A stretch of DNA of 64,000 nt from Tubulanus polymorphus. Taxonomy: Eukaryota; Animalia; Nemertea. Position 1 is the stretch's first letter, and each line of letters starts with the position of its first letter. The translations under genes were made by a program, and so were the position numbers. Below are positions 1 to 64,000 of the stretch, in pieces. The notes under the pieces are model-generated. The model saw nothing but the letters and a program-made list of their open reading frames with translations. It was not told where the DNA came from and made no database searches. The DNA lies in the NCBI RefSeq assembly GCF_964204645.1, contig NC_134029.1, positions 18,098,950-18,162,949 on the forward strand, read 5' to 3'.

Positions 1-1368
1 ACCAAGGGAGTGTGCCGATTCAACCGGCTAGTAAAACTCGACCATCACTTCCGAGACAAACCAGACTGCGAGGCTCCGCGTTTCCGTCTGCCCAGCAGTT
101 GGGCTCCGGATGAAATAGAACCAGTAATCGCCGAGTTCTGCAACGACGCGCACGAATTGGCTCAACAAACCAGGGATACGCGTCGCGCAAATGATAACCT
201 GACTAAACAGGAACGCGAAGCCCTCCAGCAGCTGCGTGACAACACTAATATTGTCATCAAAGCCGCCGATAAGGGTTCCGCCACGGTTATCATGGACCGC
301 GACGACTACGTCCACGAAGCCATGCGCCAACTAGCCGATCTCGAGTATTATCAGCCGCTGCAGCAACCGATCTTCGAACAGACCGGGGAAGAAATCCGCG
401 AAATCATCGAAAATATGGCTCGACGAAAAATCATCCCGCTAAAAACCGCCGAATATCTATTACCGCCCGATAATCCGAAACAGAGGCAGTTCTATCTGCT
501 TCCCAAAATCCATAATGAACGCGAGAAGTGGACGGTACCCGATCGCGTACCGCCGGGGAGACCGATAGTCTCCGACTGCGGCTCCGAAACCTACGAAATT
601 TCGGAATGGATCGACTACTATTTGCAGCCGATCGCCCGGAGTTACCCGTCGTACGTCAAAGATACCAACCACTTTCTAGATATTTTGGCCGGTAAACAAT
701 TTAGCGCCGATGCGTTACTCGTCACCATGGACATCCATTCGCTCTACACCAACATCCCCCACGAAGAGGGTATCGCCAGCATCCGACAAGCTCTCCGAGA
801 CAACCCAAACCCGGGACGCCCGGATGCCGAGCTGCTGAAACTACTCGAAATCAGCCTGAAGAAAAACGACTTTAACTTCAACGAAAACACATATTTACAG
901 GTAAAAGGTACCGCAATGGGTAAGCGTTTTGCTCCTTATGCCAATATCTTTGTAGCCGAATGGGAAAAAAAGAAGGTCTGTCCAGAAGCGAACTCCAACC
1001 ATCGCTATACGCTCAGTTCATCGACGACATCTACATGGTTTGGGAACACGGCCGCGAAACGTTGATGCAATTCATCGACGTCCTACAAACAGTGAGCCGA
1101 TCCATCAAACTCAAGTTCGAAATCAGCGACACCAGCATCAACTTCCTGGACGTAACCACTTTCAAAGGCCTGCGATTCGAGACAAGTGGCACAGTAGACA
1201 CCAAAGTCTACTTCAAACCAACCGATTGCACGATCACTACATCGACCTTCGTTTCACCCTAAGCACACATTTTCCGGTATAGGCCTAGTTAAAAGTCAAA
1301 TTCTCCGGTTCCGGCGCATCTGCTATAATGATTCGGACCTACACGCAGCGTCTGGAACCGTCCTTAAA
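1..1368 (+). pseudogene. Penelope-like element family 1 (Neptune-type) reverse transcriptase fragment, frameshifted, cut by window start and 3'-truncated
   Basis: ORFs 10-1065 and 960-1262 carry PLE RT motifs IVIKAADKGSATVIMDR, FYLLPKIH, PPGRPIVSDCGS, LVTMDI.SLYTNIPH, GTAMGKRFAP, FIDDIYMVW, INFLDV, VYFKPTD; near-identical to 34561-35924. Confidence 0.93.
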
Positions 1369-1670
1369 GTATTTTCAGACACCAGTCGAAGCATGACAGG
1401 AGGTGCACTTTATCAGAAGATTAAAGGAAAAGACAGATTGGTTGCATATCACTCCAAGGTTCTTCCTAAAGCAGCTAAATCCTATTCCGTCAGTGAATTG
1501 GAATTGTATGGATTATGGTTAAACATTCTTGCATTTAAACATATTTTGAGATCAATTTCGTTTCATTGTTATGTCGATCATTCGTCATTGATATACATTT
1601 ACAGGTCGAAGAACCAACCACCTACGCTTAGGATGCAAAAGTTACTCGAACGTCTTTCACCATATTCATA
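1369..1670 (+). pseudogene. Ty3/gypsy pol RNase H fragment
   Basis: VFSDTSRSMTGGALYQ...RLVAYHSKVL...YSVSELELYGL...YVDHSSL matches the gypsy RT_RNaseH pattern; fused directly to the PLE RT. Confidence 0.88.
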
Positions 1671-2530
1671 AACAGCAAAGAAAAACATCGATGACTCCGG
1701 TATGTAATAGTCGCAATATCAAATCATCCATTGAAATATCTACTTATTATATTTCCCTAATTTTAGAAAACGTTATAACCAAGGACAATTGGCAACAAGT
1801 CCTTGGTTCGGACATTGCAAGGGACGTTGTGAAATTCCTCGGGGGCAAGATGTCGCGAATTACTATGCTGCAGTTCATGGCCGTCCGGTATCATCTGATA
1901 ACTTATATATGCTCCCAAAATCAACAGCGAGCTGGTGTAGTACACCATTTAACGGTATCAGATATCGAGAGACTTCGGCTCGTTGATTTCGATGGTGATC
2001 AAGACCTAAGTGACAGTAAGTAATACTTAAGATACATTATCAAGTTTCCAGTGCCATAATTATCATTTCAAAATTTACGTAGGTCACAGGCGACCCAGAG
2101 CGAGGTCATGAAACTGTTTTGACGCATGGTGCCATAATTTTGTTCTTAACTGGTGACCTGAAAAGATTGCTATGTCTCTAAAAAATAAAAATACTGCCAC
2201 TTATAATTCGGAATGTGTGTCCACACTCCCCCCCCTGTGGGTCAGTTTTGCCGGGACAAAACTAAACAAAATGAGTGTGTAAGTGTCTTGAAATGTTGTA
2301 CAATAATTATGGTAATCCTTTCTATCGAAGTGTACTACAGCAATATTGGAAACAATCGACCAGAAAATTCAAACCAGTTACTAACAAACTGATCAGAAAG
2401 TCGGCCACAACATTGACTCGTACCGAACACCCAGAGAAGGCAGATACTTTGGCACAGCTGATGTGCCACAGTACAGCAACTGCCAACATGATCGGGCAAA
2501 AGTAAAGCATACCGAGGGCGTGGCTAGGGC
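1671..2530 (+). pseudogene. Tyrosine recombinase gene paralogue B, spliced catalytic exons
   Basis: RYHLITYICSQNQQRAGVVHHLT (catalytic R), GT-AG intron, GHETVLTHG, KLIRKSATT (second R), LAQLMCHSTATAN; the KYY nucleophile is deleted here but present at about 19300. Confidence 0.8.
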
Positions 2531-3158
2531 CGTCATCCACTGTCATCGTAGAGATAGAAGCCATCTTAAATGACAGACCGCTGTCATACGTGTCAGGGGA
2601 GGCAGAATACGTGCCACTAACCCCAGCACACCTACTATACAGGCGTTGTGTAACATCTCTACCGCATGAGTATGTCAATGAGGACAATATTATGGACCCC
2701 AACTTCAAAATCCGATCCTGCGATATAGAAAAGCGAAAGAAATACATCGATCGCGTATTCACTCACTTTTGGTCGAAGTGGAAAAACGAATATCTTGCGT
2801 CGTTAAGAGAACAACACGCTAACGCGAAAAACTCGGGACGAGTGGAAAACGTCATCAAAACCGGTGACATCATCATCGAGACAATGAGAAGCGTGTTAAC
2901 TGGCCACTGGCCATCGTGAGACATCTTCGTTACGGGCAAGATGGAATCGTGCGCAGCGCAGAAATCATGACAAAATTCGGTAAAACGAACAGACCAATTA
3001 AAAAGCTATATCCGTTGGAAATAAATAGCAATCTCGCGCCGGAAAAGGATCATCAAACCGATTAGACAACTACAGAAATCGTGAAACGACCGACACATCA
3101 CGCAGCGGAAAAGGCGCGCCGACAAATTAACGAATGGTCCAAAGTATTGAATGCTTAG
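2531..3158 (+). pseudogene. BEL/Pao LTR retrotransposon integrase C-terminus (DUF5641-like)
   Basis: EIEAILNDRPLSY...PLTPAHLL...FWSKWKNEYLASLRE...GQDGIVRSAEI...RPIKKLYPLE. Confidence 0.9.
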
Positions 3159-3696
3159 AGTAGTTTAATTAGAAAAATCATTATTCATTATTTCATATTC
3201 ATGTTCATACTTTTAAGTTTTTCAACGTGTATTTTTGCTCATTGGGAAATACTGAAACAATGTAACGCTCCTAACGTAATGTTATTGTTTAGGTTAATTG
3301 TAAACACCCGAGATGGGTACAGACTCGTCGATTGCGACGCCATCTAACGTTAGTTTGTAGACTATATAGTAGTATTAGAACGAGTTATACATGTAGTTAG
3401 ATAAATTAGACATTGGTGAGACATTGATATGTCACTTCTTATTCTTATGTAACGAAACTTGATTCACACAGTTGCTATATACATTACACATACATTACAT
3501 GTATTCTTATAAGTCTTTATTGGTCATTTTTCTATAGGTTGTTTATGATTATGCATTCTGTAATTGGTTACGTACACTAGACTACTTAGTTACCTATGGT
3601 ATAATTTCATAGTTTGAATTATTTCATGCGCTCTTAAAGCTTAAATACGTGAGTTGAATTAATCATATGTATGGTCACTTCTTTCTTGGCCGGCAG

Positions 3697-3920: not shown

Positions 3921-4034
3921 TATCCTGTTCTTAGTTTCTTTACTCACTTCTGCAGTGTCGAAAAATTGCAGGTGATCTTATGATATGACCATGGGCAAAG
4001 GAAAACAAATTTTCAAGCGCCAAAGCTACTTCAT

Positions 4035-5017
4035 CTAAAGCGAAATTGTCCAGTAATGCTAATGGTCAACTTGACAGATGGTCTGGTCAATGGATCCCTC
4101 GGCTATGGCAAGGATTTTACTGATGAGGGACCAATCGTTCATTGGGCCGATGCCGAAATCACTATGTTAATGAAACGGCATAATTTTACAAGTGAGTCAA
4201 TAAAGATAACGAGTAACACATTCTTTTTATCTATGATGATGTATACAGCTCATAGAGCTGACTTTAATAACAAGAATCATAATTTGAAAAAGAATGAAAA
4301 ATAAACTGAAAATGATTTTAAAACTGTTGCGAAATTAAAGATTTAAAATAGAAATTAAGTATCAAATGAAAGTATAGTAATCTTTGCTCAGATTCATTAT
4401 ACATGTATCACAATTCAGTAAAAATTGTTTTTCAGTCTTCGATCCATCACAAGACCATATAATTGCAAGAGGTTGCAGATACCCATTGTGCTGGCTTTTG
4501 CGTTTACTGTCCATACGGCACAGGGCATGACTTGTTCGAGTGTTACAGTTGATTGTACCCTCATTAACCGTCCAGGACAACTTGGTGTTGCGATTGGAAG
4601 AGTTACAAACTCTGATGGATTGCGACTGATAAACTTTTCCGAGCAATGCATCATCAAACTGCTTTTGGTTGATGAATTTTACGAGTGCCGTTCGAACATT
4701 ATGTCCCAAAATTTATCTTGTTGTCGAAATATACTTTCTATTAAAGATATTATTGATTGAAATTGAATCAGAACCTGTACATCACTTACTCCCAGATTTC
4801 AAGACTGAAAATGTTACTAGTAGTACAAAACCTAAACGAGCTTGACTACTGAATCAATATATATGCCCTGAATGTCAACAGCCGTGGTCTGAAAACAGTG
4901 GGGAATGAATTGCATGTGATAGGTGTAATCGGTGGTTTCACCGAACTATTCGATGATGATGAATGGGAATTTCTGAATGGAAACAAGGATGAAGAATTCA
5001 TTTGCAGTTATTGCTGA
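4035..5017 (+). pseudogene. Pif1-family helicase C-terminal exons followed by a PHD finger (copy 1)
   Basis: CPVMLMVNLTDGLVNGSLG, QIPIVLAFAFTVH.AQGMT, PGQLGVAIGRV (Pif1 motifs), then CPEC...WIACDRCNRWFH...FICSYC. Confidence 0.85.
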
Positions 5018-5149
5018 TAAATCAGCAGTAGGTAAGGTTCATTAAACATGCAATGATTAGCTGTTTTTATAATCATAACTGCATTATTGAAGTGTGGAGA
5101 TGTTGTAATAGATACTAATTAAGGTTTTTAATCTACCTTTGATTGGAAA

Positions 5150-5460
5150 TATCAGCACAAAGTCAAATTCAACCGATTCAACTACTCCTAAGACAACACC
5201 TCAGACATCAAAACCGGAAGAAACCACGATGATAACTCCCAAGAAAACAAAGTCCAATTCAACCGATTCAACTACTCCTCAGATAACACCTCAGACATAA
5301 AACCGGAAGAAATTACGATGACAACACCGGAAGAAACCCTAATGACACCAACTCAGGAAACAGATACGACACCAAACCCGGAAGAAACCACGATGAAAAC
5401 CCCCCAGAAAGATACGTCCAATTCAACCAATTCAACTACTCCTAGAAAAACACCCCAAAA
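5150..5460. repeat. Degenerate ~90-bp repeat built on AATTCAACCGATTCAACTACTCCT and CCGGAAGAAA motifs; other copies at about 13615-13915 and 26265-26395 with different unit numbers
   Basis: Motif recurs at about 5166, 5256 and 5421. Confidence 0.7.
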
Positions 5461-5574
5461 GTTTTCCAGCAACCAAGTCCTCGAGCAAGTTGTTTTAAGT
5501 CCAGTGCCCAGTTGTAAGTTCATACAACAACCTAGCCCTAACCCCAGGACAGTAAATTATAACGTTACATTTCA

Positions 5575-6540
5575 GATCTACTAAGCGCGTTTCGTGAATG
5601 GTTGACTGGTCTGAAGATATGTGAATGCAGATAGCGAAAAAAGACAAAAGATAAAAGACCAACAAATTCAACAACTTCGTGATGCCCTACAGGCAACAGA
5701 TTATTATTTAGCTGCATCCAGATTGAAACGATTCTATTTCTCACTCGTTGAAGATGGCCGCAAGGCTTCGACTGCTTCGGTGTATATGAGCACAATGTCA
5801 GAATTTTTGACATTTCTCGCCGATGTAAGTACAGTGTAAATTCGGTACTGGCTTATCCCTAGTTCTTCAATTGATGCACTCTTTTCATTCAGAGACCCTT
5901 AGAATCGTTGCAACAGCGGAGCGATCTGCAACAATTGGAGAAGATGCTTGCTCATTGGCGAAAGTTACTAAATAAGACTAAAGAAATTAAGACTGCTGGC
6001 AAAGTGAAGCAAGTGACAATGTCCCAGTTTACAGCAATCAGGAATCACATGATAACTCATGTTTGCAGTCAGAATGCACAGCATGCTGGTGTTGTTAATC
6101 ATCTGACCTGTAGAGGGGAAGAACAGGAAGAGGAGTTGTATTACGTAACGGTAAGTAATACTAATCATATTCAAGTTTCCCTAGCCAACACAGCTTTCAT
6201 ATATAAAAATTCATTATTGGAGTTCCTGACATTTTTTCTGATGTAAGTACTTATATAGTGTGTATTGTTAACTAAGTTTCACGGTTATGCCTAGCCATAT
6301 AATTTAAAAAGTTTCACGGTTATGCCTAGCCAATATGCAAAGTTTCAAGGTTATGCCTAGCCAATATGCAAAGTTTCAAGGTTATGCCTAGCCTTAACTT
6401 TTATTATTTATGCAGGTGACCAGTGACGCCGAACGTGGACATAAGACGTTTCGACTTGTGGGGGGTTATTGTATACTTCACCAGTAATCTTAAAAAAACT
6501 TTTGGACCTATATGTTGAGAAAATCCTTCCGTCAACAAAG
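5575..6540 (+). pseudogene. Tyrosine recombinase gene paralogue A, spliced, 3'-truncated (copy 1)
   Basis: Exons bounded by TTTCAG/GTAAGT; QFTAIRNHMITHVCSQNAQHAGVVNHLT and VTSDAERGHKTFRL align with paralogue B. Confidence 0.75.
6274..6393. repeat. Intronic minisatellite AAGTTTCA(C/A)GGTTATGCCTAGCC, 4 units (3 units at about 14729-14817 and about 27218-27305)
   Basis: Direct inspection; period about 32 bp. Confidence 0.85.
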
Positions 6541-6544
6541 TTGA

Positions 6545-6751
6545 CTGTCGAAAAAGATGACTCCGTCGAAAAAGATGACACCGTCGAAAAAGATGACTCC
6601 GTCGAAAAAGTTGACTCCGACTAAAAGTTCTATGAAAATTCGTGAACCGAAAGAAGCTGCGAATCCAGCCCCGGCTCCTGTCCCGGCAATTCAGTTGCGT
6701 CGGAATCAACCGGACTGGAACGACTTCCAGTATGCACGATTTTGGCCTTGA
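6545..6751 (+). other. Coding-like segment with an 18-bp (KKMTPS)n repeat and the motif PAPAPV...RNQPDWNDFQYA
   Basis: ORF 6557-6751; copies at 14970-15177 and 27460-27647; diverged homologue at about 36980-37145. Confidence 0.55.
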
Positions 6752-6775
6752 TGACTTTTTTGGCTTTTGACTTTG

Positions 6776-9144
6776 GAAATTCCGCTGTCAGACTCTGTCT
6801 GACAAATTGTTTAACCTCCTGCATAACCCGCCCACTTCCTTTCTCATTCCAGGTCCCACCACCAGGAGGCACCCACGGAGCCGAAGATTCGTCCACCGCC
6901 GAGACCGAGCCGGAAGATTCGACAGCCCGCGACGCCTGCATTAACCGCAGCCACGCCCGCTGCGCCACCTTCTTTTTCTAATTCAAGGTCACCAAATAGA
7001 AGCTACGCTGATGTCAACAGGACGCCACCAACCAGAATGGCGCCACAACCGAGAAGTCCGATGCCGACACCACTGCAAAGAAGTCTGACGCCACCGCCTA
7101 GAAACCCGCCGCCGCCGCCGCAGAGAACGCCGACCGCACCAACCAGCAGTCCGATGCAGTCTCTTCTCTTTCCAGCTCTCAGTCTCTTTACAGGTCACCA
7201 GGGTGCCTACTGCCAGCACCAGCGCAAATTGCGACACCAACACCGAGACCGATGGCGCCCCAGGAAGTTTGCCGTCATCCGAGGATGAATCGGAAGAAAC
7301 AGGATTGGAGTCTGCCACCAACCCAGCGACCCATTCTGGTTATTGGTGACTCAAACCTGAGTAACATCACATCAAGCCGCCGTCCGGATGACGTCCAGAT
7401 CGAGAGCTTCCCCGGCAACAAGGCGTCTCATCTCGCCGACCTGATCGAAGCTGTACCGGAACGCTAAGATTGCCCAGACACGGTGATCATCAGCGTCGGA
7501 ATCAACGACCGCGACTATAACTTCGAAGCTACCACCCAGAAGACTCATCAACGGCGCAGTCCGAAAGTACCAGCACTCGTTCGTCCACTTCGTTCAACAA
7601 AACACAGCCCACGAACACCAGGAGTTCACCCGAAAATTCAACGAATTCCTCAAGAACCACGACGACGTCACCGCGATACGACCAATCGATGATCGAAGCT
7701 TCAGAGTTGTTGGAGACGGGATCCACTGGGGACCATGGCACAGCTAACACCCTGCTGGACCACTGGCTCAGTGGTTTAAACTAAGTATCAGTGAGAACAA
7801 CGGGTCCACTATTGGTGAGTTAAATCAACCGGAATTAACCAATGTTTCTCTCATTTCTTCCATTTCCAGGTCCGATGAACACGACGAACCGGCACCAAAC
7901 CAAGCGCGACGCGATCCCGTCACCGCTCTCGGTTGCCCGTTCACTCCGCATAAGTCCGGCGCAACATCAGCTACTCCGAAAGGGCCTCACTTATTGCCCG
8001 ACTCCAAAAATCGGTTCTGATGCCGCCGCGACCGAGCGCACCAAGGGAGTGTGCTGATTCAACCGGCTAGTGAAACTCCACCATCACTTCCGAGACAAAC
8101 CGGACAGCAAGGCTCCGCATTTCCGTCTGCCCAGCAGTTGGGCTCCGGATGAAATAGAACCAGTAATTTCCGAGTTCTGCAACGACGTGCACGAATTGGC
8201 TCAACAAACCAGGGATACGCGTCGCGCAAATGATAACCTGACTAAACAGGAACGCATGCCCTCCAGCAGCTGCGTGACAACACTAATATTGTCATCAAAG
8301 CCGCCGATAAGGGTTCCGCCACGGTTATCATGGCCCGCGACGACTACGTCCACGAAGCCATGCGCCAACTAGCCGATCTCGAGTATTATCAGCCGCTGAA
8401 GCAACCGATCTTCGAACAGACCGGGGAAGAAATCCACGAAATCATCGAAAATATGGCTCGACGAAAAATCATCCCGCTAAAAACCGCCGAATATATCTAT
8501 TACCGCCCAATAATCCAAACAGAGGCAGTTCTATCTGCTTCCCAAAATCCATAAAGAACACAAGAAGTGGATCGCGTACCGCCGGGGAGACCGATCCTCT
8601 CCGACTGCGGCTCCGAAACCTACGAAATTTCGGAATGGATCGACTACTATTTGCAGCCGATCGCCCGGAGTCACCCGTCGTACGTCAAAGATACCAACCA
8701 CTTTCTAGATATTTTGGCCGGTAAACAATTTAGCGCCAATGCGTTACTCGTCACCATGGACATCGATTCGCTCTACACCAACATCCCCCACGAAGAGGGT
8801 ATCGCCAGCATCCGACAAGCTCTCCGAGACAACCCAAACCCGGGACGCCCGGATGCCGAGCTGCTGAAACTACTCGAAATCAGCCTGAAGAAAAACGACT
8901 TTAACTTCAACATATTTACAGGTAAAAGGTACCGCAATGGGTAAGCGTTTTGCTCCTTCTTATGCCAATATCTTTGTAGCCGAATGGGAAAAAGAAGGTC
9001 TGTCCAGAAGCGAACTCCAACCATCGCTATACGTTTCACCCTAAGCACACATTTTCCGGTATAGTTAAAAGTCAAATTCTCCGGTTCTGGCGCATCTGCT
9101 ATAATGATTCGGACCTACACGCAGCGTCCGGAACGGTCCTTAAA
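6776..9144 (+). mobile_element. PLE family 1 copy: 5'-truncated Pro-rich/SGNH ORF1 plus internally deleted RT
   Basis: ILVIGDSNLS, VIISVGIND, DGIHW motifs; RT motifs at 8050-9030; homologous to 33271-35924. Confidence 0.9.
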
Positions 9145-9510
9145 GTATTTTCAGACACCAGTCGAAGCATGACAGGAGGTGCACTTTATCAGAAGATTAA
9201 AGGAAAAGACAGATTGGTTGCATATCACTCCAAGGTTCTTCCTAAAGCAGCTAAATCCTATTCCGTCAGTGAATTGGAATTGTATGGATTATGGTTAAAC
9301 ATTCTTGCATTTAAACATATTTTGAGATCAATTTCGTTTCATTGTTATGTCGATCATTCGTCATTGATATACATTTACAGGTCGAAGAACCAACCACCTA
9401 CGCTTAGGATGCAAAAGTTACTCGAACGTCTTTCACCATATTCATTTGATCTTTCCTATTGTAAGGGTTCAGTCAGGGTTATCGCAGATTTTCTAAGTAG
9501 AGCACCTGGC
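9145..9510 (+). pseudogene. Ty3/gypsy RNase H fragment (longer copy, ends at ADFLSR)
   Basis: ORF 9169-9564. Confidence 0.88.
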
Positions 9511-9511
9511 A

Positions 9512-10850
9512 CAGCGCGAGTACGTCGAGCAAGAGGGCTGTTGAACAGAAGATGCAGCAAGTGAGTGATGCGATGAATGCCACTGATTGGTACTTGCAGT
9601 CGGCAGCCCTAAAGTTCTTTTTCGCTCTTGGGTCATTCATTTATTACGTACGCATTAGGAGAGGGGGGAGGGGTCAGTGCAATTGCGTATTGTAATGCTT
9701 AATGTATATGAAAAAATGGCCGATTTTGCGTACAGAGGGGGAGGGGGGTTGAAAAATTCAAATTTTATGCGTACGTAATAAATGAATGATCCCTCTCGTG
9801 GAGTGTGGACTGAAGGCAAACACGGCGATAATATATATGAATTCGTTTCGGACTTCCTTACATTTTTGGCTGATTATATGATCGGGCAAAAAGTAATTAT
9901 ATAGTGTAAACTAAGTTTCACGGTTATGCCTATACTCATCATATATGCATCATCTTAAAGTAATCAATGGAATCGTGCCAAAAAGAGGCAGACCTGCGAA
10001 GGATCAGCAATCTAATTATTCACTGGAGGAAACTACTCAACTGACGAAAGGAGGTGGAAACAGCAAAGAAAAACATCGATGACTCTGGTACATAATAGTC
10101 GCAATATCAAATCATCCATTGAAATATCTACTTATTATATTTCCCTAATTTTAGAAAACGTTATAACCAAGGACAATTGGCAACAAGTCCTTGGTTCGGA
10201 CATTGCAAGGGACATTGTGAAATTCCTCGGAGGCAAGATGTCGCGAATTACTATGCTGCAGTTCATGGCCGTCCGGTATCATCTGATAACTTATATATGC
10301 TCCCAAAATCAACAGCGAGCTGGTGTAGTACACCATTTAACGGTATCAGATATCGAGAGATTTCGGCTTGTTGATTTCGATGGTGATCAAGACCTAAACC
10401 AAGTGACAGTAAGTAATACTTAAGATACATTATCAAGTTTCCAGTGCCATAATTATCATTTCAAAATTTACGTAGGTCACAGGCGCAGGTTACGTAGGTC
10501 ACAGGTTGTTCTTAACTGGTGACCTGAAAAGATTGCTATGTCTCTATAAAATAATAATACTGCCACTTATAATTCGGAATGTGTGTCCACACTCCCCCCT
10601 GCGGGTCAGTTTTGCCGGGACAAAACTTAACAAAATGAGTGTGTAAGTATCTTGAAATGTTGTACGTCTCAGTAAAGTGTCACAATAATTATGGTAATCC
10701 TTTCTATCAAAGTGTACTACAGCGATATTGGAAACAATTGACCAGAAAATTCAAACCAGTTACTAACAAACTGATCAGAAAGTCGGCCACAACATTGACT
10801 CATACCGAACACCCAGAGAAGATAGATACTTTGGCACAGCTGATGTGCAC
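9512..10850 (+). pseudogene. Tyrosine recombinase paralogue B (copy 2), interrupted by a MITE
   Basis: N-terminal exon homologous to 5650-5825; ORFs 10079-10423 and 10639-10875. Confidence 0.78.
9629..9793. mobile_element. 165-bp PIF/Harbinger-type MITE
   Basis: TIR (T)GGGTCATTCATTTATTACGTACGCAT / ATGCGTACGTAATAAATGAATGATCCC; 3-bp TSD TCT; removal restores TTC GCT CTC GTG GAG (FALVE) in the YR exon. Confidence 0.85.
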
Positions 10851-10997
10851 ACAGTCACTGTTTTATGAGGGTTAGGGCCCGGACCCATGGAGAAGATAGA
10901 GGGCGACTAGCTGACCAAGAGTTCCACTTAAGACCCGAAATCATTAATAATAATCATAATATTAATATATTAGTTGTGGTACATATCTCCACGAGAT

Positions 10998-11092
10998 GGT
11001 ACCTAAGTCGAACGAATTGGATTTAGGTACCCTGTTTGTTGGATTTATGTACCTTGAATGAAGGTACATAAATCCAACCGTCATTGGGTACC
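10998..11092. repeat. Nested inverted-repeat cluster including a perfect 18-bp hairpin
   Basis: GTTGGATTTATGTACCTT-gaatg-AAGGTACATAAATCCAAC at 11038-11078; copy at 23685-23725. Confidence 0.85.
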
Positions 11093-11139
11093 ATTTGTTT
11101 CGCAAAAAACTTCTAATTCATAAAACAGATCCACCGCAC

Positions 11140-11600
11140 GGATCACTCCGCAACAAGGTAGCTCTCTTAAAAAAGCATGAGTTTTCTCAGCAAATTTTAT
11201 TATCTAATATAAGGAAACGAACGTCAACACATTTTGACCGCACTATTCATTTCGACATGTTTTCAAATTGATCCGGTCTCCAGATTGTCCCGAAGCGATG
11301 ACGCTCTCTTGAAAAGCATGAGTTTTCTCAGCAAATTTTATTATCTAGTATAAGGAAACGAACGTCAACACGCTATGACTGCACTATTTATTTCGACATT
11401 TTTATTTAGATCCGTTCTCTGGATCGTCCCGCAGCAAGGACTCTCTCTTGAAAAACATGAGTTCTCTCAACAAATTTTAATATCTAATATAAGGAAACGA
11501 TCGCAAACACGCTATGACTGCACTATTTATTTCGACATATTTTTAATTAGATCCGTTCTCCGGATCGTCCCGCAGCAAGGACGCTCTCTTGTAAAAACAC
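11140..11600. repeat. Tandem repeat, ~141-bp unit, about 3.2 copies (duplicate at about 23790-24247)
   Basis: CTCTCTTGAAAAGCATGAGTTTTCTCAGCAAATTTTA-like motif at about 11162, 11305, 11444 and 11584. Confidence 0.85.
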
Positions 11601-11954
11601 AAGGATTCTTACAAAAAAAGTTTTATTTTTTATAAAACACTCAATAAACTATGAATATCGCTCATCAATATCTCATCCCACGTAACGGATCAAACAAACA
11701 GTGGAGCCTCTCGCCCGGAAGTTCACACCTTGACGTCCAGGCATGATATGACGCCCAGGACTAATTATCACAATTAGTGCCAGCACGGTGACATTGAGCA
11801 CGCCCGACCAATGCATTACTTGCATAGGGCCCCTATGTCGCCGTACACGAGTCTACTATGCCCTAATACACTGGACTAATTACCCCGACCGAGACACACC
11901 CCCAAGCCCGACTATAAAGACCGGCCCAAAACCTCCACTGCCCTAGAATCCTTC

Positions 11955-11993
11955 AGTTACTGACGAAGATACTATCAATCGAAACGTTTAACT
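11955..11993 (+). ncRNA. Minimal type I hammerhead ribozyme in a solitary PLE pseudo-LTR (about 11685-12072)
   Basis: AGTTA-CTGACGA-A-GAT(actatca)ATC-GAAA-CGTT-TAACT; stems I and II pair; palindromic AACGTT; TATAAA about 45 bp upstream. Confidence 0.8.
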
Positions 11994-12072
11994 TACGATG
12001 AGATACAACAACCGACCGCACCAACGCGGCAGGGAGCTGACCCCAGATCGCCGCCGGCCTACCAACCAGAGC

Positions 12073-13480
12073 CAGTTACCCCCTGTAAAAAATGTATTGT
12101 ACAATGACGATGGAAAAATGGCGTTTGAATCAGTTCTATGGGATCAGACCATTGTTCACACAACTTGTCACAGTAATGAGACAAAAGGATAAATTCTTTG
12201 CTCAGGTAGGCTAAAAAGTTTATGCTGTTTTGATACATGCCATGTCTATTGTTACTTGAAAATGATTTCTTTATAATAGGTTGTAAATGAAGTCAGCAAA
12301 GGCTATTGCTCTGCTGAGACAATAGATTTTCTAAAGGAACTTTCATGTAAAGAAAGCTACGCAAGTGAAACTATTTGCTACAAACACTGAAGCTCAAGTT
12401 GAAAATTCAGAATGTGTATTCAATGTGAGTATCATCTCATCTCATTTCTAAAGCGAAATTGTCCAGTAATGTTAATGGTCAACTTGACAGATGATCTGGT
12501 CAATAGCTCCCTCGGCTATGTCAAGGATTTTACTGATGCGGGACCAATCGTTCATTGGGCCGATGCCGAAATCACTATGTTAATGAAACGGCATAATTTT
12601 ACAAGTGAGTCAATAAAGATAACGAGTAACACATTCTTTTTATCTATGATGATGTATACAGCGCATAGAGCTGACTTTAATAACAAGAAACATAATTTAA
12701 AAAAGAATGAAAAATAAACTGAAAATGATTTTAAAACTGTTGAGAAATTAAAGATTTAAAATAGAAATTAAGTATCAAATGAAAGTATAGTAATCTTTGC
12801 TCAGATACATTAAGATTGCATCATTTGCTGTACAATAGAACAAAAATTTATACATGTATCACAATTCAGTAAAAATTGTTTTTCAGTCTTCGATCCATCA
12901 CAAGACCATATAATTGCAGAGAGGTTGCAGATACCCATTGTGCTGACTTTTGCGTTTACTGTCCATAAGGCACAGGGCATGACTTGTTCGAGTGTTACAG
13001 TTGATTGTACCCTCATTAACCGTCCAGGACAACTGGGTGTTGCGATTGGAAGAGTTACAAACTCTGATGGATTGCGACTGAAAAACTTTTCCGAGCAATG
13101 CATCATCAAACTGCGTTTGGTTGATGAATTTTACGAGTGCCGTTCGAACATTATGTCCCAAAATTTATCTTGTTGTCGAAATATACTTTCTAATTAAGAT
13201 ATTATTGATTGAAATTGAATCAGAACCTGTACATCACTTACCCCGAGATTTCAAGACTGAAAATGTTACTAGTAGTACAAAACCTAAACGAGCTCGACTA
13301 CTGAATCAATATATATGCCCTGAACGTCAACAGCCGTGGTCTGAAAACAGTGGGGAATGGATTGCATGCGATAGGTGTAATCGGTGGTTTTACCGATTTT
13401 GCGCCGAACTATTCGATGATGATGAATGGGAATTTCTGAATGGAAACAAGGATGAAGAATTCATTTGCAGTTATTGCTGA
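12073..13480 (+). pseudogene. Pif1-family helicase (motif III onward, spliced) plus PHD finger (copy 2)
   Basis: QLPPV...MAFESVLW, V.RQ.D, CPVMLMVNL, TVHKAQGMT, GQLGVAIGRV, WIACDRCNRWFY.FC...FICSYC*. Confidence 0.85.
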
Positions 13481-14965: not shown

Positions 14966-15200
14966 TGACTCTGTCGAAAAAGATGACTCCGTCGAAAAAG
15001 ATGACACCGTCGAAAAAGATGACTCCGTCGAAAAAGTTGACTCCGACTAAAAGTTCTATGAAAATTCGTGAACCGAAAGAAGCTGCGAATCCAGCCCCGG
15101 CTCCTGTCCCGGCAATTCAGTTGCGTCGGAATCAACCGGACTGGAACGACTTCCAGTATGCACGATTTTGGCCTTGATGACTTTTTTGGCTTTTGACTTG

Positions 15201-17942: not shown

Positions 17943-17943
17943 A

Positions 17944-39507: not shown

Positions 39508-39541
<34 letters not shown>

Positions 39542-51484: not shown

Positions 51485-51822
51485 TAGTGAAAAGATGATG
51501 AAAAGATAGTGAAATAATGAAAAAGATAGTGAAATAATGATAAAAAGATGAAACGATGGAAAGGTGAAACAATGAAAAGGTTAAACAATGATAAGGTGAA
51601 AAGATGAAAAGACGTTGGAAGATGATAAGTAAAAAGGTTATTATGCACCAGCTATAGTAGTTTACTGTGGTGTTAGAGACACAACGTTCAAGGTCGTTGT
51701 GATAATTGGAATCTTACAGTCGAATCTTAACTAGCGTTGCATTCATTGCATTGCTTGATTAGATGCGATACAGTGTAAATATTATTGCATTTTTATATTA
51801 CATCGTAAAATTAGGATAACGG

Positions 51823-52683
51823 ATGACAGAAATTGAAGTTTATAGACACATTTTTGACCGGCTGAAATATGTGTTGGGTGAAATTGAAAGAGAAGCCATA
51901 AACGAGAGAACTCTCTATAAGTTAGATAGACTTTACAGAGACATGTTTGAGTGCGAGTGCCATGAACTAGAAACAATAGCATATGATATTGCCCATGCGT
52001 ATAGTATCATTCAACGTTTGTGGTATCAGCCAACAAGTTCAGACACATCGGTGTCTCAAAGTCATCACTATCAAGCTCTATTGAATAGGCTACCTGGGGC
52101 CGGGCGCCCAAGATTTGATATATCTAAGGAACAACATGAATTTTTCCTGGGTAAGTTTTAAAAATGATTAATTTCAGCCTTGCATATTGGCTCAAGTCAT
52201 GTTACTGTAGGCCTACTTTCAAACTTTTATTAGATAATTTAAGATACCAGGCAAAGCATCTTTCTTTTGATGCTTGTTTTTGTCAATAGTTAGAAGGAAA
52301 TACATGTTTCAGTTGTTTAACGTTATGTAACTTTTTACAGAAAATAATTTCAGGATACCAGATATTGCAGAAATGTTATCTGTTAGTAAAAGGACGGTAG
52401 AAAATCGTTTAAGAGAATATCACATGAAAGTTCGAGATTACTTGCGTCATCACAGATGATCATCTAGATAGTCGGGTTGCGTACTATATGCAGCTATTCC
52501 CTAATGCTGGTAAATCTTTTTCCTGGATTCTTTAAGCTAACACCACCAATAAAAATGCACCAAGCATCATAATAGTGGTATTGCGTGCACTCTCTATATT
52601 TTTAAGGATGGCGTAGCATTTTAGCCATTCTCTCATCAGAGGGCAGAAGGATTCAACGTGATCGCGTAAGAGAATCAATGTGA
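51823..52683 (+). pseudogene. N-terminal exons of an integrase-type (IS3EU-like) transposase
   Basis: GRPRFDISKEQ..F|intron|F.IPDIAEMLSVSKRTVENRLREY...FPNAG|intron|..L.SEGRRIQRDRVRESM. Confidence 0.65.
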
Positions 52684-52949
52684 ATCAAATAGTAATAGTG
52701 ATAAAAAGGCTCAACGAAACTCTGGAGGGGTAATAGAGTTATGCAAAGAGAAACTTAGAGGATATGTCAAAGTCTGTTGCAATTGTTCGATACCTCAACT
52801 TGGTGCAAGGGTGGGTAAAAGCTAAATCGAACTCGAGCGCATAAGTCAAAGCTAAGCCTACGTAGTCAAGCATAGTCGAGACCCAAACCGTTCAAACAGA
52901 ATTTTGTGCTGCTTGTATCTGTAATAACTTAAAACTCTTAAAAACGCCT

Positions 52950-54305
52950 ATAACAGTAAGGACAGGATGAGCTAAGCCTAGGAACGTACGCTGCCTGTAT
53001 CTATGCACTTAAGCGTTGGGAAACCACTAGCCGAAGCCAGATCAAAACCCGAAGCCTCAGAGCCAGAACTCAACAACTCACAGACCAAGTCGGGCGCTCG
53101 GAAGAAAGTTGGGTCGAGTGTGGGCGGAATACCATCGCATAAAACAGGGCATAAAGCGCATGAAGAGACAGGACAGGTGACCTCTGAGCTAAGACGAAAG
53201 TGCGCCAGCACAAACTCATCGAGGCGAAGAAAGATCTGAAAAAGGTGGGAAACAGCACTCGAGCAGAGGGGACCCAGGTCCCAACGGGATCCAAAACTAC
53301 TGGTGGAAGAAACTCCAGGATCCTCTAAAGCAAGTAGTGGAGGGTGTCCTTAGGGACCACCTCACAGTTAACGATGTCTTCTGTGGTGGCCGGATGGCGA
53401 CGTTCCACAAGAAGGGGGATGAGGCCAATCCTGCAAACTACCGACCAATTGTCTGCTTGAACACGATGTACAAGATTACCACTGGAGTAATGGCGAAGTG
53501 GATCACAAATCATTCAATTGCGACGGGCATTCTACCGGAAGAGCAGAGGGCTTGACTGTTTGCTGATGGACAAGTCTAACCTAAAGCAAGCAAAGCATCT
53601 CCACAAGACCCTTTCGGTGGTCTGGATTGATTACAAAAGGCCTATGACAAGGTCCCACATGACCTAGTCACACACGCAGTAGAAACAATCGGCGCACCTC
53701 AATGGTTTAAAGAACCCCTTAGCAAGATCATGAGACACTGGAACATAGTGTTTGAGCAATTGGGCAAGGACGGGTTCGAGTGTAGTGAGCGGCTACACCT
53801 ATGGTGGGGTTACTCCAGGGCGACCCCCTAAGTCCGATACTTTTCTGCATTGCCAGTGCGCCTATCTCAATGCAATAGATGAGCATACAGCCGGGTTCAA
53901 GACTAAGGACAGAGCAAGCTTGACCCATTTTGCATACATGGATGACATCAAGCTTGTTCAGCCTAACGAATCCATGCTGCACTTGGCAGCCAGGGATTCT
54001 GGAGAAGCTTCGACAGCTTGCGGTATGGAACTATGGTACGAGAAGTGTAGAGAGGCACACATGGACCGTAAGGGTGGAGTGAAGACGGATGGGGCAGCAG
54101 ACGTGCCACTGCCAGTGTACAAAAAAGGGAGCACGTAAACCTATCTGGGGGCACCCCAGTTACACGAAACCTGCATGGGTGATCTGAAAACGAAAGTCAA
54201 AGACCACCTATGCGCCTAGGCGAAGAAAATTTGGGGATCAACGCTCAGTTCCAGCCAGAAAAAGACCACGCCCAATGCCGTGTGTATAGGTGCCTTAAGG
54301 TACAA
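52950..54305 (+). pseudogene. Non-LTR retrotransposon RT (R4/Dong-like, RLE group), decayed
   Basis: KKGDEANPANYRPIVCLNTMYK, ILPEEQ, WIDY.KAYDKVPH, LQGDPLSP.LFCIA, HFAYMDDIKL. Confidence 0.85.
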
Positions 54306-56516: not shown

Positions 56517-57420
56517 CATTCAGATATTTGGTATAAAATGATGACATGTTCTCTTTTAGGAGTAAAACACACTGACACTGACAATCCAAAAAAGCACTGT
56601 AGTACGAGATGCAGTGACGACACACAGAGTGATACCGCAGCATCTCTAACAAGTGCGGTTACCTAATTCTTAATGCTTTTCTCAATAAGTATTTCGCATT
56701 AACAAATCCCCGCATCACACGATGAATGATTACGGATACAACATACAAAATCTTGATCCTGCTGAAATGTCCATGGTTCAAACGGTGCCATAACTCAGAA
56801 CCGCATTCAAATGTTTGGTAGAAAATGATATGACATGTTTTCTTTTAAGAGTGAAACACACCGACACTGGCAATCAAAGAAGTCACAGTAGCATGAGTTG
56901 CAGCGATGACACACAGAGTGATACTGCAGCATCTCTAACAAGTGTGTTACCTAATTCTTAATGCTTTTCTCAATTTCAAGTATTTCGCATTTCCAAATCC
57001 CCGCATCACACAATGAATGATTACGGATACAACATACAAAATCTTGATCCTGCTGAAATGTCCATGGTTCTAACGGTGCCATAACTTAGCATCGCATTCA
57101 AATATTTGGTATAAAATGATATGACATGTTTTCTTTTAGGAGTGAAACACACCGACACTGGCAATCAAAGAAGTCACAGTAGCATGAGTTGCAGCGATGA
57201 CACACAGAGTGATACTGCAGCATTTCTAACAAGTGTGTTACCTAATTCTTAATGCTTTTCTCAATTAGTATTTCGCATTTCCAAATCCCCGCATCACACG
57301 ATGAATGATTACGGATACAACATACAAAATCTTGATCCTGCTGAAATGTCCATGGTTCAAACGGTGCCATAACTCAGAACCGCATTCAAATATTTGGTAT
57401 AAAATGATATGACATGTTTT
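56517..57420. repeat. Tandem repeat, ~290-bp unit, about 3.1 copies
   Basis: CATTCAAATATTTGGTATAAAATGATATGACATG-like motif at about 56517, 56804, 57095 and 57383. Confidence 0.9.
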
Positions 57421-57431
57421 CATGATATGAC

Positions 57432-57790
57432 ATGATGCATCTGGGGTAGGGCTTGGGTGTGTGTTGTCCCAGATCCAGGACAGCATCGAATGAGTCATCG
57501 CGTACGGGAGTCGAACGTTATCTATGCAAGAACTGAATTGCTGCGTGACCCGGTGGGAATTGCATGTGGTGATAACATATATCAAGCTTTTCTGTCATTG
57601 CCTGCTAGGCACTAGGTTTCTACTCTGACCACGGCTTGTTACGGCGGTTGATGTCGTTCAATGAACCTGAAGGTCAGACGGCACGATGGATAACGGCACT
57701 GACTGATTATGACTTCGCAATACAGCATCGATCTGGGAGGAGCCACAAAAATGCAGATGCTCTCTCTCTCGGAGGCAATGTACCAAATGT
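57432..57790 (+). pseudogene. Second Ty3/gypsy RNase H fragment (different family)
   Basis: DASGVGLGCVLSQIQD..E.VIAYGSRTLS...EPEGQTARWITALTDYDFAIQHRSGRSHKNADALS, read manually. Confidence 0.85.
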
Positions 57791-58608: not shown

Positions 58609-59195
58609 CCGTAAAAACCGGCGTATAAGTCTACGCGGCGTATAAGTCGAGGTCGATTTTTAGACCTACATTTCATGATTTTAACATATATCCGGCTTAT
58701 AAGTCGAGTCCCTTCTCTTAGAAGAATAATTACTAGTATCATTGTATTGAATAGTTTGTTTTGATAACGATGTGTGCCTTCACGCTCACCGCCACGCGTC
58801 AGCCTGATTGCTGCTGTGTGTTAATCAATAGACTGTTACACACACTCAGGTATAATACACTACCATACAGTGATACAGTAGTGTGAGTCACACGCTATAT
58901 ATAGCCTAATGTATTAAGCGCTGGTATGAGCGCGCATATATGAATACATCGTTTTAAATGAGTGTCAAAATGAAAGAAGTTTTTTTCTCATTAAATAACT
59001 TTATTTATCATGAATAATTATTCAAACTGTTATAGCAGTAAGAAGATGAACACTGTCTTTTTTGTCTGGTAGAATCAATATTTCTTGTGACCTGAAAATA
59101 CTTCGTAGAAAACTGTACTCGGCGTATAAGTCGAGGTCAATAATTTAGTGGTAAAATCAAGGGTTAAAAACTCGACTTATACGCGGTTTTTACGG
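58609..59195. mobile_element. pogo/Tc1-type MITE with TA TSD
   Basis: TA|CCGTAAAAACCGGCGTATAAGTC ... GACTTATACGCGGTTTTTACGG|TA; internal GTATAAGTCGAG repeats. Confidence 0.9.
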
Positions 59196-59705: not shown

Positions 59706-60200
59706 ATAGGTATAGAGAACATTGAACTACATTATTCGTACAGATATACGCGGAAGACCGAAAGAGCCAGTGGCAAAATTAACACCACTTGGGTGGATTT
59801 GTATTAGTTGTCCATCAAGAAACCCAGATGGAACAACGGATGTTCAAATGAACTTTGTAAGTACATACTTCAGCAAAGCCGATCAAGAACTTAGCTTATC
59901 AGTTGAGAAATAAGGAACTTGGGGTCAACGAAAGAAATCTTTAAGCCAAGAAGATCGTCAGGCGCTCAAGATAGTAGAAGTGTCGCTGACATACCAAGAA
60001 GGGCGTTATTAAGTAGCAGTACCATGGAAGGGTGAAGTGAGAAGACTTTAAAACTACCAGGCTGCACTTAAACGCCTCGAGAACACAGAAAATTGATTGA
60101 GAAGAAATCCAGAAATAGCAGATTCAGATAGTAAGACGATCCAGAAATACATCAGAGAAGAAATACATACAGAAGATACCAAAATGAGAAGACACCCATG
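59706..60200 (+). pseudogene. BEL/Pao pol fragment (protease-RT linker)
   Basis: EPVAKLTPLGWIC, LSQEDRQAL.I....GRY.VAVPWK, NYQAALKRL..TE..LRRNP. Confidence 0.8.
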
Positions 60201-60453
60201 GAGGTCATTGGTATTCACAGCAAAATGTGTGCCATATCACCAGTAACGTGATAAACCTCAAAACAAAAGATGGCAGATTTCCCAGTATAGTGTTTAGCGA
60301 TCGACAAGCCACCATTTGCCAACACTGGAAACGATAATTACATGCCGTTCCGTTAAGGAGTAATCCTTGCAAGATTTGGTCCAAGGACCTTTGGATTCGG
60401 GCCGATAAGGCTCGGAAGCTAAGTGATCGTTGTCGAGTTAATAGTACCATTAA

Positions 60454-61497
60454 CCCCTTGACCGCCTGTACCGATATAGTCGGTATCACCGTTTCTCCCC
60501 GGAATGTCGGTACCGATATTGTCGGTATTTATGTATATGGGATTTGACCTGCCTTTGCAAGGTCTACTGTGTATCGAGTAACATTACGCATATATAGGTA
60601 CCGTAGTAAACATTCACGTACTTGAAATGGAAGCAATTTCATGAATTTGCTGGTGTTTTGATGACAAGGGATACAATCTATGTGTATGAGTGAGATTCTC
60701 ATGGCTAATCGTAGACCTAAACGGTATGATCTTGCAGCTGTTGTTGATCAAATCTGCAGCTAAGGGTCGCCCAAGAGCGTCAAATGATGTCCCCATCCGC
60801 TTTAGTGGAAAACACTTCCCAGCTCTGAATCCTCCTACTGGAAACAGACAAGTTGCGTTTCGTGTCTGTCGAATCTGCTCAGAACGTGATCGCGAAAATG
60901 GGGCTTCAGGAACACGGAAACGTGTTGAAACGAAATACAGGTGTGTTGCCTGTGGAAATGTGCCTCTTTGTGCTGCACCCTGTTTTGAACAATGGCATAC
61001 TTTATAAACTGGATACAACTGCATATGAACTGTGACAATTGATATTTGTGTTTTTCCATGAAATTTCACTAAACGGATATTTTCAGGTAAAAGAGCCTTT
61101 ATTCATTTATTTGGAGATCTAATCACACAGAAATGGTTGTATATTGTAGGTAACATTCATATCTATCATTCAGGCACACACAAAACTGTTTCTGCACTTT
61201 TTATATGCAAAATTTTATTTCAGAAGGAGGTGTGTATATGAAATTTTGATGGCGGCCATATTGATGACGTCATAATGACATCATCATGAACAACCAAGTA
61301 TCTTAAAAAGTATTTTAATGGGCTTGAATAGATAGCTCTGAATGTTACCTTTTCAAATATATATGGTTTATAGCAGTTTAATTGAGAAATAAGTGACTGG
61401 AAGGCAATTTTCAACTTTTGGGTCACGACATAAAAATCCCCCCAAAATAAGTGGCGTACGGGTATATTTATTATAAAAATAAGTGGCGGTCAAGGGG
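60454..61497 (+). mobile_element. Non-autonomous piggyBac element retaining the C-terminal Cys-rich domain
   Basis: TTAA|CCCCTTGACCGCC ... GGCGGTCAAGGGG|TTAA; HFP...CRICS...RVETKYRCVACGNVPLCAAPCFEQWHT. Confidence 0.95.
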
Positions 61498-62141: not shown

Positions 62142-62993
62142 TGCATTGCCTTCCATGATGACTTAATTGTTTTTTTTTTTCAGAGTCAACTAAAGACCAA
62201 ATTTAACATTCGGAGAACATTTTTTCGATAGGAGAGCAGCACCATCCCACCTAGGATAAGTACTTTATTCAGATGAGAAGTTACTTATGTTGGCCACATT
62301 ATTTAAATTGTAGATGGAGTAGTACAAGTTCAAGTGATGAATGAGAAATGTAGCGCAATTAGAAACATGAAAATTTCCAAGAATCCGAAAGAAGTCAGCA
62401 GATTCATTGGAACCATAAATATCTGGCGATATTCTTACCAAAGTTCCAGTCTCTATTGAAACTGTTGAAATAATCAATATCTAAGAAAGAAGTTACAGAG
62501 AGACAATCGATAGAGATCTATTCACAAGTTAAAGCAGCCATGCTTAAATTGATCAGCTAACTTCAGCACTAATATCATGCTAAGTATCAACTTTTGCAAG
62601 CAATGAAATGTCTGAATCCGAAAGAAATTGTTGAAAATCTGGTTGTAATTCTATCATTTCAATAAAGTGCTTTTAAGTACTTATTGACTCAAAGAAAGTG
62701 AATGAGAAATAATTCCAGCGACATGTGATGCAATTGGTGCAAGCATGAAAGACAAATTTATGAAGGTAACTACCAAATAAAGGAGCTTTACCTGGTAAAC
62801 ATTAATTTTGTATTGTTATCTTGTATCCATGATGACTTTATTGATTTTAACTAAATCAACCAAATGAAACACTTCTTGTTCAACTTCAGAGACGCACCAT
62901 CTCACCTAAGGTATGTAGGTTAGATGTGATATGAAGTTAGTTATGTTGGACATTTTATTTCAATTGTAGATAAAGTAGTATAAGTTCAAGTAA

Positions 62994-63138
62994 GGGATCA
63001 TTCATTTATTACGTATGCATTAGGGAGGAGTCAATCGCTTATTGTAATGCTTAATGTATATGAAGAAATGGGCCGATTTTGCATACAGAGGGGGATTGAA
63101 AAATTCAAATTTTATGCGTACGTAATAAATGCATGATC
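62994..63138. mobile_element. Harbinger-type MITE (family of 9629-9793), right TIR interrupted by a copia LTR
   Basis: TAA|GGGATCATTCATTTATTACGTA ... TACGTAATAAATGCATGATC|TG. Confidence 0.8.
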
Positions 63139-63930
63139 TGTTAGATAATGTTAACTATGTTATTTTTATATTGTGGTTAGAAATATTCCATCATCCTCCT
63201 GATGATCATGTGCATGTATGACTATGACTCATTTACGCATGATGATGATATGATGAAATAAAGATTAGTTGATTAGTAGATTTAGCAGAAACAAGACGTT
63301 GTTGCATTGTTTTATCCCCAAGTTCTGGATTCCGCTGTTAATTACTCAAGTTCATGTTAAGGATGGCTTCTAGCGCTCCAACAGGTTATGGGCCCAGGAG
63401 AAACTTGATTTTTGATGGCGATGAGAAGAGGTATGAACTGTGGGAAGCGAAGTTTTTGGTGTACATGAGACTTCAAAAACTTTATGAAGTATTGATTCCG
63501 GCAGCAGGGCTAGAGGCTCAAGCCCCAAATGCCAATGATAATGCGAACGCATATGCGATATTATAAACTGTTTGGATGACAGAAGTCTAACCCTTGTCAT
63601 CCGTGATGCCGAAAATGATGGCAGATAGGCTTTGAAAATTTTGAGAGAACACTATGTCCAACCGGGAAATCAAAGATAATTGGATTATATCATGAACTTA
63701 CAACAATTCAGAAACGAAGTGGTGAAAGTGTTACCGACTATATGCTGAGGGCCGAGAGTGCAGCCACAGCATTAAAGTCAGCAGGAGAAAAAATAGGGGA
63801 TGGATTGCTCGTAGCTATGGTGTTAAAAGGATTACCCCCGTCGTATAAAAAGAGAAGGAAGTGAATTGGAGCGAATTCAAAGTGTCGTTAAGAAATTTCG
63901 AGGAAACCGAAAATGATAAAATTACAATTT
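63139..63930 (+). mobile_element. Ty1/copia element 5' part: LTR 63139-63383 (TG...CA), PBS 63384-63397, decayed gag
   Basis: TGTTAG...CCAACA followed by GGTTATGGGCCCAG (copia-type PBS for an initiator-tRNA fragment); gag FDGDEKRYELWEAKFL, LDDRSL.LVIRDA..DGR.ALKILREHY, ESVTDYMLRAE, MVLKGLP. Confidence 0.9.
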
Positions 63931-64000
63931 TTGGAACTAAAATTTGTATTTCCGAGTAGTACTTACCCATTCCTATGGTTTTTGCCAATATTGGCCCCAG

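Follow-up and report, generated by a model that had tools for sequence, protein, structure and literature searches.

A 64-kb stretch of the Tubulanus polymorphus genome with all recognisable transposon coding remnants on one strand, a candidate one-strand piRNA source locus

Several kinds of transposon-rich loci are described in the excerpts of the literature drawn on here. In Drosophila, loci resembling flamenco (flam-like loci) were predicted from 100-kb windows whose transposable element (TE) content is strand-biased (van Lopik et al. 2023, PMC10643416). Planarian type A ('Seed') clusters of PIWI-interacting RNAs (piRNAs) are one-stranded and antisense to TEs (10.64898/2026.01.28.702291), and mosquitoes, a stingless bee and crickets have one-strand somatic clusters with antisense gypsy, BEL/Pao, long interspersed element (LINE) and copia sequences (PMC13172572). 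Mollusc piRNA clusters are enriched in DNA transposons (Kolobok, hAT), Gypsy and BEL (Jehn et al. 2018, PMC6128900), and the Terminons of bdelloid rotifers are endonuclease-deficient mobile units at telomeres (PMC6431247). Here we analyse a window of 64,000 nucleotides from the nemertean Tubulanus polymorphus (contig NC_134029.1, positions 18,098,950 to 18,162,949), in which every recognisable TE coding remnant lies on the plus strand. Judged by its sequence, the window is a candidate of a known kind of locus, its distinctive feature being a polarity that extends across TE classes.

Open reading frames (ORFs) were defined from stop to stop with at least 45 amino acids and taken from the non-duplicated parts of the window (1-12500, 19280-23510 and 29090-64000), later tandem copies being excluded as 94-99% copies. 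Searching Pfam at E<=0.01 gave mobile-element family matches for 17 of 215 ORFs on the plus strand, 13 of them above the curated cut-off, and for none of the 247 ORFs on the minus strand, where the seven weak matches are to non-TE families and all have E>=0.0026. When seven unannotated stretches (15.2 kb) were read through on the minus strand with X at stops, none of the 21 frames matched a TE family; in 38100-39250, 40900-43700, 48660-49790 and 50930-51820 the minus strand was covered by the ORF scan alone. Read-through of the plus strand (10 stretches, 30 frames, partly overlapping the minus set) added a second gypsy RNase H fragment. The same picture emerged from tblastn, which gave 117 plus and no minus matches with the 29 ORFs of the window itself (self matches counted), 226 and none with 120 pogo relatives and one tyrosine-recombinase (YR) relative, and 298 and none with 150 YR relatives. 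In a self-BLAST 58 direct matches stand against four inverted ones, the latter being 39-41-bp palindromes or CTG/CAG runs.

Hammerhead ribozymes follow the coding remnants. A strict descriptor of the minimal Penelope-type hammerhead found two motifs on the plus strand and none on the minus strand, compared with none in 100 shuffles, and both motifs fold as expected; a relaxed descriptor yielded four and none. Neither strand matched an earlier descriptor, which demanded a closed stem III and gave way to the minimal one. The initial annotation, made from the letters alone, had claimed that all recognised TE coding remnants and all hammerheads are on the plus strand and that the minus strand holds no TE ORF, and these statements hold in the searches above.

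The families named in that annotation were recovered in large part. Both reverse transcriptases (RTs) of Penelope-like elements (PLEs), both gypsy RNase H fragments, one BEL piece, the YR genes, Pif1-PHD, the Tigger-like, pogo and piggyBac elements, the non-LTR (long terminal repeat) RT and the copia gag are tool-confirmed on the plus strand, R4 being a putative clade for the non-LTR RT. Harbinger, integrase-type (IS3EU-like), two further BEL pieces and hAT-like are labels given by eye from motifs, which we take as unconfirmed: the Harbinger-like, BEL gag, BEL RT and hAT-like pieces have no matching TE family in Pfam at E<=1, neither of two candidates confirmed the Harbinger exon label, and the integrase-type ORF had no usable match in Atlas. 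With boundaries set by the analyst and by-eye pieces counted, plus-oriented TE remains make up ~68% of the window. Host gene families above the Pfam cut-off were absent from both strands, a search that exons below 45 amino acids could escape; ARAGORN found no tRNA gene in the window, and Rfam gave no match there at gathering score and one chance match (E 0.18). CpG is barely depleted in the window.

Across the left 36 kb, head-to-tail duplications form a mosaic that consists of an 8.4-kb unit (97%), a 2.9-kb piece (99%) and a 1456-bp unit. The junction that joins 12440 to 4034 occurs in X1 contigs and in nine reads of sequencing run X5, a DNA run from another study that also contains the window stretch, which ruled out an assembly artefact. 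Runs X1-X3 track copy number like the whole-genome shotgun run X5 and were hence treated as DNA. The depth of the 8.4-kb unit is two to three times single copy, so the unit is real and local, and a dispersed composite mobile unit was ruled out. A 141-bp tandem repeat lies at 11148-11599 and again at 23795-24246, and a 41-bp palindrome at 11038-11078.

Since the left part is tandemly duplicated, its copies are not independent insertions. We therefore merged copies and counted all YR, zinc-finger and Pif1 pieces as one element, leaving 12 tool-supported elements (8 retroelements, 4 DNA-type), all on the plus strand (p = 4.9e-4). With eight further elements, assigned by eye or oriented weakly, the count is 20, again all plus (p = 1.9e-6, or 2e-5 with one dissenter). 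DNA-type elements account for 4 of 4 in the first set and 8 of 8 in the second, which are small numbers. The chance of about 6e-5 for about 15 insertions in the initial annotation is thus of the right order only with the by-eye calls.

The one-strand TE bias of uni-strand piRNA clusters is therefore found in the window, together with their high TE density; further marks of such clusters are a long transcript antisense to the TEs and phased, 1U-biased small RNAs of 24-32 nt from a single strand. Cut-and-paste transposons have no built-in orientation, so that the polarity is most simply explained by a filter that acts once insertion has taken place. The filter known to affect every class is a long transcript from one strand in which antisense insertions are useful and sense insertions harmful, and this would suggest a uni-strand piRNA precursor. 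In our judgement the window is probably part of a one-strand piRNA source locus, as the initial annotation had proposed, whose long precursor would be made from the minus strand; the layout, with its share of plus-oriented TE remains, no host exon found and DNA transposons included, fits this better than the rival explanations. An RNA polymerase II transcript would run through the window from right to left, antisense insertions being retained because they would yield guide piRNAs against active relatives elsewhere, and sense insertions being lost because the precursor would be interrupted at their polyadenylation (polyA) sites, at their splice signals or by their ribozymes. A higher dose would result from the tandem duplication. 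Targets exist for PLE families A and B (PLE-A, PLE-B), as both have many close copies in the genome.

The way in which the pieces arrived can be read in part from their ends. Elements of at least 12 families entered, some of them by ordinary transposition, as the piggyBac derivative and a pogo-type miniature inverted-repeat transposable element (MITE) keep both ends and target duplications; later, most elements were trimmed and joined to one another, and the left part underwent a tandem amplification confined to this locus. Of the other pieces, most have lost at least one end, and their junctions show little or no microhomology. The Harbinger-like, integrase-type and YR pieces retain, by eye, apparent plus-strand GT-AG introns, and GTAAGT and TTGCAG are enriched on the plus strand only. 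Owing to the apparent retained introns the pieces do not look like processed sense mRNAs, and together with the target-site duplications this disfavours retro-copied sense mRNAs. Insertion by ordinary transposition, followed by deletion and duplication at the DNA level, fits the layout. The Harbinger-like copy that the piggyBac derivative interrupts has a twin at 45425-46183, in which the site is empty and differs by one letter. The piggyBac derivative is hence a late insertion that can be dated and is correctly oriented, and it could serve in tests of the trap model.

A bolder version, which we put forward only tentatively, is a one-strand piRNA master locus for all classes, that is, an antisense archive grown by local tandem duplication that would preserve families of which no other close copies are left in the genome. 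It would span Gypsy, Penelope, non-LTR, BEL, copia, tyrosine-recombinase and cut-and-paste DNA transposons.

Several observations weigh against a one-strand piRNA source. For Tigger, pogo, YR3 and the non-LTR RT the depth is that of a single copy (93% likeness), so close targets may be gone. The polyA signal AATAAA is not depleted on the minus strand (41 seen, 33.3 expected, z +1.6), which lends no support to the remark in the initial annotation that polyA signals on the plus strand would not cut a minus-strand transcript. Among 298 polarised substitutions between tandem copies there is no asymmetry of the transcription type (A>G 46 vs T>C 33, p 0.57), G>C vs C>G being the only one of six tests to reach p 0.005. 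The repeat at 30180-30790, which is non-coding, is the only feature that points to the minus strand. In the available parts of PMC10643416 the flam-like bias is driven by Gypsy LTR elements only, whereas the bias in the window extends across classes, so that the label 'flamenco-like' fails in its strict sense. Finally, with 12 orientable elements per 64-kb window and a genome of 220-300 Mb, about two windows would be co-oriented by chance as an upper bound, and only the 20-element count, which relies on by-eye calls, escapes chance (<0.01 windows per genome). Our rough estimate of genome size is ~220-250 Mb (single-copy depth ~8, 1934 Mb of reads). One rival idea is that the window is a silent heterochromatic graveyard whose chance polarity was inflated by duplication and by picking an extreme window, or else the relic of a cluster that has ceased to be expressed. 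In its favour are the duplicated left 36 kb, the expected number of chance windows and the lack of both polyA depletion and mutational asymmetry, yet the non-duplicated right 27 kb alone holds seven Pfam-supported families and the YR3 gene, all plus, and the chance expectation becomes negligible once by-eye calls are counted. We consider it unlikely.

Strand bias without piRNA output would also arise if a minus-strand gene or long non-coding RNA had an intron long enough to contain the window, with selection against sense insertions. LTR and LINE elements in introns of mammals and cichlids are mostly antisense, according to excerpts of PMC3088655 and PMC4353498, and an exon-free interior is what an intron predicts; no exon was found in the window. 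The DNA transposons of cichlid introns are unbiased in the parts of PMC4353498 consulted, however, whereas here four tool-supported and up to eight DNA-type elements are co-oriented, so the bias reaches beyond LTR and LINE elements. An intron-type null gives p = 0.001-0.027 for 12 elements and <=1.1e-3 for 20. The high proportion of TE remains and 15 kb of tandem duplication also speak against an intron, which we regard as rather improbable.

The PLEs, whose general anatomy agrees with that in the consulted parts of PMC8557442, belong to three families. The longest PLE-A copy has an upstream GDSL/SGNH-like ORF, the RT, and a 3' UUCG hairpin followed by a short (TAACCC)n; the C-terminal GIY-YIG domain persists in the copy at 29055-29780 (E 4.6e-5). 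Descriptor search and folding revealed no hammerhead core at the 3' end of PLE-A; Terminons have a hammerhead followed by reverse-complement telomeric repeats at their 3' end. A sequence search of the PDB with the PLE RT gave no match. In PLE-B the ORF is preceded, as usual, by the endonuclease end and a hammerhead. In the third family the hammerhead core is intact at 22630, and the tandem copies of this motif at 19752 and 21207 are without the GAAA core. Close copies of PLE-A and PLE-B number in the tens to hundreds genome-wide; for PLE-A depth indicates ~50-60, and it may have been active recently.

These elements raise the question whether polarity was set at insertion, by a telomere-proximal or fork-polarised region or by Penelope-driven capture of co-oriented RNA as in Terminons. 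Three PLE families, two of them with hammerheads, a GDSL-like ORF, head-to-tail arrays and (TAACCC)n echo the Terminons as portrayed in the excerpts of PMC6431247. Nevertheless, the tandem unit has two to three copies by depth and is hence not dispersed, GIY-YIG endonucleases are present in both PLE-A and PLE-B, the breakpoints of PLE-A copies lie away from hammerheads, and the window has no telomeric array, only one (TAACCC)2. As the target duplications of the piggyBac and the pogo MITE are moreover typical of their own transposases, polarity at insertion appears very unlikely, and a one-strand piRNA source is the reading that we prefer.

The features underlying this analysis are collected in Table 1. 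Three diverged zinc-finger/YR genes have Pif1 and PHD neighbours (36800-42433, 5600-6775, 9900-10855 and 3984-5014), and a motif that occurs near both 6700 and 37110 follows one YR and precedes another. The YR label is backed via relatives, of which 544 were found and 6 of 20 scanned carry PF00589, and Atlas weakly agrees; PHROGs gave a helicase match for Pif1 and otherwise weak matches only. Possibly, the zinc-finger/YR genes with Pif1 and PHD represent a large, poorly described family of YR DNA elements. For the pogo transposase 599 relatives were found; those with names come from vertebrates and arthropods and share 50-57% identity. Runs X1, X2 and X5 contain a joint that skips 1025 bases at 49096-50122, possibly another allele or a deleted pogo copy elsewhere.

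Non-coding repeats are frequent. The 165-bp MITE has ~2000 genome copies, its two independent insertions in the window match in direct orientation, and runs X7 and X8 cover only this element (1 of 30 bins each). The repeat at 30180-30790 sits in a 2.5-kb non-coding stretch (29911-32410) in which minus and plus scans gave no family match. Further high-copy non-coding repeats, which are not orientable, lie at 40858-41830, 38400-38735 and 54300-55200, the first of them, which splits YR3, with a B-box-like motif on plus. A 370-bp element (59336-59706) bounded by inverted repeats, with TTAA ends, likewise has a B-box-like motif on plus, and another such motif lies at 58568 (within 58540-58600). The two TGC-tailed non-coding copies have an A-rich left end, and each stands directly ahead of the ORF of another element (PLE-A, pogo). 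A plus ORF of 116 amino acids (55517-55864) and an apparent two-exon remnant (54867-55180) have no family match.

Table 1. Features of the window. HTH, helix-turn-helix; a dot marks features without assigned strand.
Feature	Position	Strand	Evidence and copies
TE-dense stretch, no recognised host gene, all orientable coding remnants plus	1..64000	.	ends beyond window
PLE-A, RT part	1..1373	+	copies 6776-9150, 15201-17581, 27672-29911
Gypsy-type RNase H fragment 1, fused to truncated PLE-A	1374..1669	+	RT_RNaseH E 1.5e-16; copies 9150-9565, 17581-17996
YR-like gene fragment YR2	1670..2536	+	tblastn; copies 9900-10855, 18330-19380
BEL/Pao integrase C-terminal fragment	2536..3150	+	DUF5641 E 1.7e-8
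Pif1 helicase end and PHD finger	3984..5014	+	Pif1_2B E 2.1e-5; PHD E 4.7e-5 on second copy; copies 12447-13480, 25094-26127
Head-to-tail tandem duplication, ~8.4-kb unit (Pif1-PHD, YR, PLE-A, gypsy RNase H, YR)	4034..19286	+	97% identity
YR-like fragment YR1	5600..6250	+	tblastn; copies near 14060 and 26540
Very high-copy 165-bp MITE	9630..9794	.	depth ~2000x single copy; also 18062-18223; independently 62995-63138
Weak hammerhead-like motif	11955..11997	+	relaxed descriptor only; folding z -0.03; copy 24607
3' end of third PLE family with hammerhead	19380..19810	+	44-47% to PLE-B endonuclease end; copies 20840-21260, 22290-22680
Probable BEL/Pao gag N-terminus, in 1456-bp tandem unit	19976..20426	+	by eye, from motif; no Pfam TE family; copy 21431-21881
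Third partial copy of 8.4-kb unit	23501-29095	+	
~290-bp repeat, tRNA-T-arm-like motif three times	30180..30790	-	ARAGORN 0 genes
Non-coding retroelement 3' end, TGC tail	32410..32775	+	orientation inferred from tail; second copy 49393-49754, 74% identical
Longest PLE-A copy	32778..36590	+	RVT_1 E 3.6e-4; GDSL E 0.009
ORF remnants and zinc finger upstream of YR3 gene	37017..38016	+	zf-Di19 E 0.003
Zinc-finger/YR gene YR3	39296..42433	+	46% to P0001; split by ~1-kb high-copy insertion 40858-41830
Tigger-like DNA transposon	43092..45200	+	HTH_Tnp_Tc5 E 8.9e-18; DDE_1 E 1.9e-19; probable left terminal repeat only
Harbinger-like transposase fragment, apparent intron	45425..46183	+	by eye, from motif; unconfirmed; twin 60355-62141 split by piggyBac; further piece 62706-62991
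PLE-B: endonuclease end, hammerhead at 46591, RT	46185..48660	+	GIY-YIG E 8e-5; RVT_1 E 3.6e-6
pogo-type DNA transposon with right terminal repeat	49776..51486	+	HTH_Tnp_Tc5 E 1.4e-15; DDE_1 E 2e-16
Integrase-type (IS3EU-like) transposase 5' part, apparent introns	51820..52690	+	by eye, from motif; HTH matches E ~1e-3
Non-LTR RT fragment	52960..54300	+	RVT_1 E 1.2e-4
291-bp tandem repeat, 3.1 copies	56517..57421	.	
Gypsy-type RNase H fragment 2	57420..57760	+	RT_RNaseH_2 E 3.5e-12
Complete pogo-type MITE, TA both sides	58609..59195	+ weakly favoured	alignment score 42 vs 34
Probable BEL/Pao protease-RT junction fragment	59716..60260	+	by eye, from motif; no Pfam match
piggyBac derivative, both terminal repeats, TTAA duplication	60454..61497	+	zf-Tnp_2 E 1.6e-7
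Possible hAT-like transposase fragment	62330..62700	+	by eye, from motif; no Pfam match
copia gag fragment	63340..63930	+	Retrotran_gag_2 E 4.9e-8

If the bolder reading of a master locus for all classes is right, such loci could be recognised across invertebrates by their sequence polarity alone, and confirmation by small RNAs would establish a transposon-defence master locus in an animal where none is mapped. Among described systems, the window resembles Terminons in its PLE RT, GDSL esterase, hammerheads, head-to-tail arrays and C-rich, telomere-like 3' end. It is unlike them in that the PLEs have endonucleases, the unit is undispersed and unrelated TEs with their own ends are present; an endonuclease-deficient PLE unit moving as a whole was not found, as GIY-YIG is present and depth is two- to threefold. 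Mollusc clusters share the content of DNA transposons with the window, a strand tally of insertions being absent from the passages of PMC6128900 at hand (its supplements may hold one) and from those of PMC6004056 and PMC4662822. None of the literature excerpts searched describes a one-strand cluster whose DNA transposons show a bias of this strength, which is only a weak indication that no such cluster exists.

Like the somatic clusters of insects, the window has several TE classes antisense to the cluster, in this case to the putative minus transcript; the insect clusters differ in being Gypsy-centred, and DNA transposons are not mentioned in the available passages of PMC13172572. With planarian type A clusters it shares a large, gene-depleted, one-strand organisation in a non-insect animal, whereas those clusters are, in the excerpts considered, mostly LTR, with DNA transposons lying in sense in the other cluster type. 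As in flamenco and flam-like clusters, finally, a large TE-dense region has its fragments on one strand; those clusters are further characterised by sizes of hundreds of kb and by their expression in somatic cells of the ovary. Unlike in flamenco, enrichment and bias are not Gypsy-driven: gypsy contributes two short RNase H pieces, 2 of the 12 tool-supported families, and the bias spans PLE, non-LTR, BEL, copia, YR and cut-and-paste DNA elements. Should small RNAs confirm the locus, strict antisense polarity would reach DNA transposons and Penelope, unlike the Gypsy-only bias of flamenco.

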